Below are positions 54,781-54,960 of a stretch of DNA of 64,000 nt, piece by piece. Position 1 is the stretch's first letter, and every line of letters starts with the position of its first letter. Source of the DNA: an uncultured Planctomycetota bacterium (GTDB lineage: Bacteria; Planctomycetota; Planctomycetia; Isosphaerales; Isosphaeraceae); NCBI GenBank assembly GCA_963823665.1, contig CAWGMQ010000005.1, forward strand, positions 896,001 through 960,000, given 5' to 3'. Below the pieces are notes generated by a model. That model was not told the origin of the DNA and did no database searches. It saw nothing but the letters and a program-made list of their open reading frames with translations. The position numbers were made by a program, and so were the translations under genes.

Positions 54781-54817
54781 AAACAAAAAGGCCCGGTGCT
54801 TCGTGACACCGGGCCTT
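54781..54817 (-). terminator. Intrinsic terminator (attenuator) upstream of main tRNA block
   Basis: 11-bp stem AAGGCCCGGTG/CACCGGGCCTT followed by TTTGTTT on minus strand. Confidence 0.8.
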
Positions 54818-54852
54818 GATCACAGCTTCGGGAAGTCGTGATGGGCCAAGTG

Positions 54853-54960
54853 TCAACAACGCAGCGTGTAATTCGGCTGGGGACTCGCCGAGCGACCGGC
54901 ATCATCCTTCGCCTCACTCGTTTGGGATAGCAAATTCAGTTCTGACAACATGCCGTTCAT
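54853..54960 (-). CDS. Putative 35-aa leader peptide (uORF)
   Basis: MNGMLSELNLLSQTSEAKDDAGRSASPQPNYTLRC*; stop lies in segment complementary to terminator 5' arm. Confidence 0.55.
   Translation of the reverse strand: MNGMLSELNLLSQTSEAKDDAGRSASPQPNYTLRC

Follow-up and report, generated by a model that had tools for sequence, protein, structure and literature searches.

The tRNA arrays of Planctomycetia carry a conserved leader that, judging from its sequence across relatives, is a real, class-wide element of the attenuator type, in which a known type of mechanism has a new output. The leader was studied first in the window, a stretch of 64,000 nucleotides from an uncultured member of the Isosphaeraceae, and 127 leaders ahead of tRNA arrays across the class were gathered in total. 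[quoted passage not shown] It is likely that the leader acts as a ribosome-controlled transcription attenuator, with a spare array of tRNAs predicted to stay silent as long as translation proceeds normally and to be transcribed once ribosomes stall. Coupling of the leader to the ribosome is highly probable, and a stall-on direction with a general trigger is likely; as the trigger itself, we infer translation stress.

In the window, the leader lies on the minus strand. A motif match to an ECF-like promoter (GCGCGAAC, a 16-17-nt spacer and GCGTC; 55014..55042) marks a putative start site, and it is followed by a weak Shine-Dalgarno-like GAGA (54966..54969), which is GAGG in most relatives of the same family. 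The 35-codon uORF ending in UGA that had been predicted on this strand was found by ORF calling and conservation at 54960-54853 (54853..54960, ATG start, Arg at position -2). Its codons 2-9 (segment 1; 54934..54957) form a predicted anti-antiterminator strand, whose duplex of -12.9 kcal/mol is weak in the window copy (z -1.55), and a small hairpin within the frame (54886..54901), seen through covariation, is a candidate pause signal for RNA polymerase. The antiterminator strand (segment 2; 54844..54855), recognized by pairing, folding and comparison with relatives, starts at the stop codon. The claim that this strand is complementary to the 5' arm of the terminator was reproduced exactly, as 54855-54844 faces 54815-54804 with 10 Watson-Crick pairs, 1 G-U pair and 1 mismatch. 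Between the two strands, again as predicted, folding places a hairpin (54842-54819; that is, 54819..54842) whose sequence varies among relatives. The intrinsic terminator was called at 54781..54817; its stem (54817-54788, segments 3 and 4) has 12 pairs including outer A-U pairs, and the T-rich tail after it (U-rich in the RNA) stops some 64 nt short of tRNA-Lys(CTT) at 54717, in agreement with the U-tract terminator proposed ahead of that gene. Eleven tRNA genes, from Lys-CTT to Leu-CAG (53643..54717, minus strand), were counted downstream of the leader. It is the conservation of the arrangement in relatives that lifts the window leader above chance, since complementarity at this single locus is modest: when the upstream 71 nt are dinucleotide-shuffled, pairing is as good in 30 of 2000 cases, and the predicted fold of the whole 231-nt region does not surpass that of shuffled sequences (z -0.97). 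An Rfam search at gathering score found neither a T-box nor another cis-regulatory family on the leader, the matches in the window being tRNAs only, and a Pfam search with the uORF peptide gave no match.

The relatives were reached by several routes. A BLAST search of 61 related genomes, with tRNA-Lys(CTT) as its main driver, yielded 20 loci, of which three with only tRNA-Ala were left out; the leader is present in 15 of the 17 remaining array loci, usually at the array head before tRNA-Phe. A pattern search matched 54 of 121 genomes of the family, after which regions were chosen by eye, and 52 of 55 matches were kept and aligned, three without a tRNA or uORF being dropped. In the pattern behind these first 52 leaders, TGAC and the two arms of the terminator were fixed. 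A covariance model matched 70 of 151 genomes of the class at E up to 0.05, and all 23 new loci that were inspected precede tRNAs. In the 16-Mb genome of the window the model found two copies, both in the array. A wider regulon behind the same leader in this genome was considered and rejected, as uORF and tRNA are both lacking at the next three matches (E 0.007-0.96). When the pattern was run across GTDB, 93 matches resulted, and of 80 fetched, 64 are followed by a tRNA within 600 nt. These 64 loci belong to Planctomycetota (Pirellulales, Planctomycetales, Isosphaeraceae and Gemmataceae), apart from two bins that bear no label and a short contig binned as Nealsonbacteria; removal of 11 duplicates left 53 further leaders besides the first 74. 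When the search was reversed and array heads were reached via tRNA-Phe or tRNA-Glu, the leader was found at 26 of 29 heads (18 strong and 3 weak model matches and 5 read by eye, a set that overlaps the others; one internal match of 30 was left out). Cultured carriers are Bremerella cremea, Stieleria mannarensis, Lacipirellula limnantheis, Adhaeretor mobilis, Aeoliella straminimaris and Maioricimonas sp.

Outside the class the picture is different. The strict pattern matched 9 of 401 genomes of the phylum, and the six loci of other classes that were checked have no downstream tRNA on the same strand. The model search beyond the class matched 7 of 151 genomes, and its three other-class matches are weak, are without a tRNA and resemble ordinary terminators. 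In the genomes searched, a tRNA-linked leader was not found outside the class; a divergent form could escape detection. The 7 matches of a plasmid search are confined to the tRNA part, and neither of 2 matches of the planctomycete pattern in viral contigs is linked to a tRNA. Among the 24 sequencing runs listed, none matched more than 0.17 of the sequence words. Four metatranscriptomic RNA runs, in the form of contigs, contained tRNA pieces of other organisms, left the uORF uncovered and give no evidence either way.

This distribution bears on whether the leader might be a separate gene for a small RNA or small protein, with its own terminator, while the tRNAs are transcribed from another promoter or by leak-through. 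Promoter, Shine-Dalgarno sequence, open frame and terminator are all there, as in any small gene, and selection acts on the tail of the peptide. The greater part of the peptide is unconserved, however, tRNAs follow directly in 64 of 80 pattern loci and 23 of 23 inspected model matches, there is often no room for a promoter between terminator and tRNA, and the 16-Mb genome of the window has two copies only, both in the array. A separate gene is thus most improbable.

The uORF might have turned out to be unconserved, but its frame, its length and the positions of its start and stop are conserved in relatives, and by these comparative signs it is under selection to be translated. An ATG stands exactly 99 nt ahead of the stop in 38 of 74 leaders. 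Within the last 24 codons, none of these 74 leaders has an in-frame stop, compared with 32 and 18 in the other frames; for the 53 further leaders the counts are 0 compared with 25 and 19. The length is 33 codons in 54 of the 121 leaders with a called start (range, 16-47), and a Shine-Dalgarno-like word is present in 74 of 117 leaders, compared with 9 of 117 control windows. One leader carries a frameshift, and another starts with CTG. The peptide ends in Pro-Leu-Arg-X-stop, encoded by synonymously varying codons, and most of the remaining peptide drifts. Arg at -2 is found in 116 of 127 leaders with all six codons in use, Leu at -3 is encoded by CTG (36) and TTG (33), Pro at -4 uses four codons, and residue -1 is variable (Leu, Cys, Thr, Arg or His). 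The Arg is kept in 62 of 63 leaders where its codon can pair and in 54 of 64 where the codon is predicted to be unpaired, indicating that RNA pairing contributes to its conservation. No conserved run of codons for one amino acid was found in the leaders, in which Arg and Cys are enriched overall, and the sensor therefore looks general rather than specific for an amino acid. The idea that the uORF samples all amino acids was rejected, as it has a mean of 15.3 distinct amino acids (null, 14.7-15.0) and a maximum of 18.

The conserved end of the peptide allows another reading, in which the leader is a peptide-specific attenuator resembling TnaC. A single ligand, drug or state of the release factor would cause Pro-Leu-Arg-X-stop to arrest the terminating ribosome, so that arrest means off and fast release means on. 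Selection of the last four residues at the peptide level fits this idea, as does the length peak at 33 codons, which is about the length of the exit tunnel. The preference of naked RNA for the antiterminator in 73 of 117 leaders points the same way. On the other hand, residue -1 varies, the stop may be UGA, UAG or UAA, lengths range from 16 to 47 codons, the anti-antiterminator would favor termination after release, and extra tRNAs would be expected as the output of stress and not of its absence. We consider the peptide-specific reading unlikely and return to the general, stall-on attenuator.

The helices of such an attenuator are supported by the alignment to different degrees. Terminator pairs form in 92.3% of alignment cells, and the 8 nt after the stem contain at least 5 U in 111 of 127 leaders and fewer than 5 in 16. 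For the antiterminator helix, 87.5% of cells are paired, compared with 25-40% when the strands are slid. Covariation across the array leaders, which the original prediction had named as a check, appears in this helix as 18 two-sided changes, 17 of them at one pair outside the search pattern (0 of 500 shuffles); the helix counts are partly circular for the first 52 leaders, as the pattern fixed both arms. Moreover, most pairs are invariant, and relatives are non-independent. Less circular evidence comes from divergent leaders, because these were reached through their tRNAs. In L328 and L329 the frame ends in UAG and in L331 in UAA at the homologous place, and the terminator arm changes to match; L332 and L334 have UGA followed by U, and the arm again carries the matching changes. 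The hairpin inside the uORF is paired in 70.8% of cells, and 7 of its 8 pairs show two-sided changes. A third helix, between codons 2-9 and the antiterminator strand, exceeds its shuffled counterparts in a large minority of leaders: 26 of 70, where control windows give 1-8, and 19 of 47 in an independent set, where non-overlapping controls give 0-3. L107 and L214 are examples with a strong form of this helix. RNAalifold recovered the terminator alone from the alignment, as is to be expected of competing helices.

The direction of the switch was approached by folding a transcript that ends at the terminator loop, after removal of the RNA beneath and behind a ribosome and with a 12-nt edge. A reach of 12 nt past the stop is also given in PMC4833913. 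With the A site at least 4 codons early, the antiterminator is favored in 67-74 of 74 leaders; with the ribosome at the stop it is favored in none (0 of 74), which follows partly by construction, as the strand is masked. For 117 leaders the antiterminator is favored in 73 when the RNA is naked, in 107 with a ribosome at codon 5 and in 0 at the stop; for the window copy the corresponding values are 0.99, 0.99 and 0. Two parts of the proposed logic, that a ribosome at the stop masks the antiterminator so that transcription ends and that an early stall gives read-through, are thus borne out by predicted folding. The third part, that absence of translation also gives read-through, holds for the naked window copy, which is predicted to read through. 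It would not extend to many other leaders, in which codons 2-9 are predicted to pair with the antiterminator strand and the anti-antiterminator would keep the copy off, so that absence of translation need not mean read-through. In the full-length RNA at equilibrium the terminator is favored in nearly all copies (median probability, 1.0). Read-through must then depend on the order of folding, and the switch must be kinetic.

We propose the following sequence of events. RNA polymerase would start from the ECF-like promoter, and a pause at the uORF hairpin may give a ribosome time to load. Once this ribosome arrives at the stop, its footprint would extend over about 12 nt counted from the stop codon. 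These nucleotides make up the antiterminator strand, and the terminator would fold. The conserved Pro-Leu-Arg-X end probably sets the dwell time of the ribosome at the stop, and in many copies codons 2-9 would recapture the antiterminator strand after the ribosome is released. If an antibiotic or a tRNA that is uncharged or cleaved held the ribosome at least 4 codons early, the strand would remain available for pairing with the terminator arm, and transcription would continue into the tRNAs.

The promoter motif GCGCGAAC-N16/17-GCGTC, which we take to resemble the promoters of ECF sigma factors, lies upstream in 118 of 127 leaders, with a spacer of 16-17 nt in 116. A promoter of the array's own downstream of the terminator would have spoken against the original prediction, and the motif scan found none in 126 of 127 leaders; L092 has one regex match. 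The gap from terminator to first tRNA is at most 30 nt in 61 of 127 leaders, and half of the leaders end no more than 32 nt away. The motif also occurs without a leader, at 3 of 29 array heads and at two segments in the genome of the window, namely, the array head (Phe, Glu, Pro) and an Arg-Cys piece. As some array segments have the promoter without the leader, the switch is dispensable. On another reading the leader is a fixed dampener, coupling giving a constant low read-through and real regulation taking place at the ECF-like promoter, whose motif is found more widely than the leader and drives segments that lack one. A constant leak, however, needs neither three exclusive helices nor an open frame nor a stop fixed at the first base of the antiterminator, and we regard a dampener as decidedly unlikely, even more so than the peptide-specific reading. 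The motif was also tried as the sign of a larger regulon and rejected: it gave 17 matches compared with 8 for a control pattern, 3 of them at array pieces and most others within ORFs. No such motif was found ahead of rtcB in the genome of the window; the sole rtcB match there (L262/L263, G000:C4:1597775-1599086, minus strand) is split over two frames, possibly by an assembly error or because the gene is broken.

Two further places with variant forms of the motif were noted. In the window, one starts at 55510 on the minus strand, upstream of tRNA-Lys(TTT) and tRNA-Ile(GAT), which were called at 55198..55378 (minus strand), upstream of the leader and outside its control. A truncated response-regulator receiver fragment (55260-55739, minus strand) abuts this motif and suggests a past insertion that separated Phe-Glu-Pro from Lys-Ile. 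Elsewhere in the genome (L264, G000:C8, upstream of 587.7 kb, minus strand), a Ro60/TROVE gene lies behind a tRNA-like segment and two GCGCGAAC-N17 motifs of variant form. ARAGORN and Rfam made no call on this segment, which may be a Y-RNA-like gene that depends on the same sigma factor as the leaders. In L115 (2600-3600, minus strand) a Ro60/TROVE gene comes after the array, and the gap between them is rich in short repeats whose cores are GACTGCCGG and GGAGTACAT; some of the repeats bear tRNA-like T arms.

The array in the genome of the window comprises 33 tRNAs in five pieces on one contig; in relatives there are up to 38 tRNAs per array locus. Outside the array, 48 tRNAs cover all 20 amino acids (150 of 322 candidates were scored, so that a Lys-TTT elsewhere may be missed). 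These duplicate 31 of the 33 array anticodons, and many of them lie behind sigma70-type motifs. As the outside tRNAs cover all amino acids and duplicate the array, an array that is off by default is affordable. With its length and its mostly redundant isodecoders besides a dispersed full set, the array is what has been called an L-array. The window leader sits inside the fragmented array and not at its head. The 11 tRNAs downstream of it end at a half tRNA-Asp adjoining an integrase (52386-53432, protein-domain match), where an integrase element of about 74 kb cuts the array piece. Its attachment core, 41 nt that make up the 5' half of tRNA-Asp(GTC) (53528..53568, minus strand), is repeated 74 kb away behind a second copy of the leader. 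At this far end of the element, a second promoter, leader and AT-rich arm (L033, G000:C5:875543-875956, minus strand) stand just before the restored tRNA-Asp. Similar cassettes of leader and arm precede Asp, Gln or Val tRNAs in L083, L102, L082 and L103, and L079 holds three leaders. Judged by these cassettes, mobile elements appear to resupply the switch.

Other genes also accompany the arrays. An HNH endonuclease gene lies inside arrays between tRNA-His and tRNA-Trp (L034:9474-10076, minus strand; L107; L093), in L159 the leader is directly ahead of an ORF similar to an HNH endonuclease, and in L081 an RNA ligase gene is behind the array. In or beside arrays of Planctomycetia we also found a conserved, apparently noncoding stretch of up to about 700 nt (L339:1636-2340, plus strand; L155, L228, L199, L222, L154 and L184), with 70-78% identity over 420-490 nt in three loci. 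It lies directly behind the leader in L339 and L228. A long open frame is absent from it, Rfam gave no match at E up to 0.5, and it is a candidate for a large RNA of no matched family. The window further contains, at 56564-63982 (minus strand), a repetitive ORF of 2472 codons, probably for a secreted adhesin-like protein, which continues in another frame at 55966-56616.

Of the known systems, the leader-peptide attenuators of the trp, his and phe operons form exclusive 1:2, 2:3 and 3:4 helices, a ribosome at the leader stop masks segment 2, and a hairpin may pause polymerase. The planctomycete leader is predicted to follow the same helix logic. It differs in that there is no regulatory run of codons, about 85 nt separate segment 2 from segment 1 (codons 2-9), and the target is noncoding. 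T-box control of a clostridial tRNA operon is also known. Our search of mainly open-access literature, limited to main articles, found neither an account of the planctomycete leader nor any attenuator on tRNA genes, and it did not bring up the T-box-controlled clostridial operon either.

The closest likeness is with whiB7/wblC of Actinobacteria. There, according to bioRxiv 10.1101/2023.06.02.543512, a uORF attenuator leads to a Rho-independent terminator when translation is efficient and to an antiterminator upon stalling. Both systems have a short uORF, a choice between terminator and antiterminator and general sensing of translation stress, which for the planctomycete leader is predicted from sequence. 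In contrast to whiB7/wblC, the planctomycete output is tRNA genes directly and not a transcription factor, the leader being found before tRNAs in Planctomycetia; WblC activates six tRNA genes, but it does so indirectly, in its role of regulator (PMC7157823). When the start codon is lost, whiB7 becomes derepressed, whereas many planctomycete copies have a predicted anti-antiterminator. The planctomycete uORF also lacks enrichment of the alanine type and an excess of distinct amino acids. No sequence relation between the two is expected, and they are likened by architecture alone. The planctomycete leader is a member of neither the whiB7 nor the trp type of attenuator.

For the output, the trn operon or L-array of Anabaena PCC 7120 is the relevant comparison. 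According to PMC8421152 and PMC10272220, translation stress induces it via the repressor TrcR, which acts on direct repeats at a sigma70 promoter and is restricted to cyanobacteria. Like that array, the planctomycete array is long and supernumerary and has an HNH gene nearby, and induction by stress is expected. Control of the planctomycete array would lie instead with a leader at an ECF-like promoter. PMC8421152 names Planctomycetes among the phyla with L-arrays, and the words attenuat, leader and terminator are absent from its main text. Planctomycete tRNA clusters have been called degenerate and perhaps dispensable (PMC4807772).

Long tRNA arrays are common and mostly unexplained, and a conserved switch before the planctomycete arrays argues for a maintained, inducible unit. 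The leader offers a second route, unrelated to TrcR, to stress induction as in Anabaena. We give about an even chance to a wider picture, in which the class has an emergency supply of tRNAs with the ribosome as the sensor. A stall on a 33-codon test gene would release up to about 40 spare tRNAs together with the HNH nuclease and, in some genomes, a large RNA of no known family. Pro-Leu-Arg-X-stop would be a new termination-timing peptide, and elements that insert in array tRNAs would bring promoter and switch with them, so that the downstream tRNAs stay inducible. The leader itself would provide direct feedback from the progress of the ribosome to tRNA synthesis in a bacterial chromosome.
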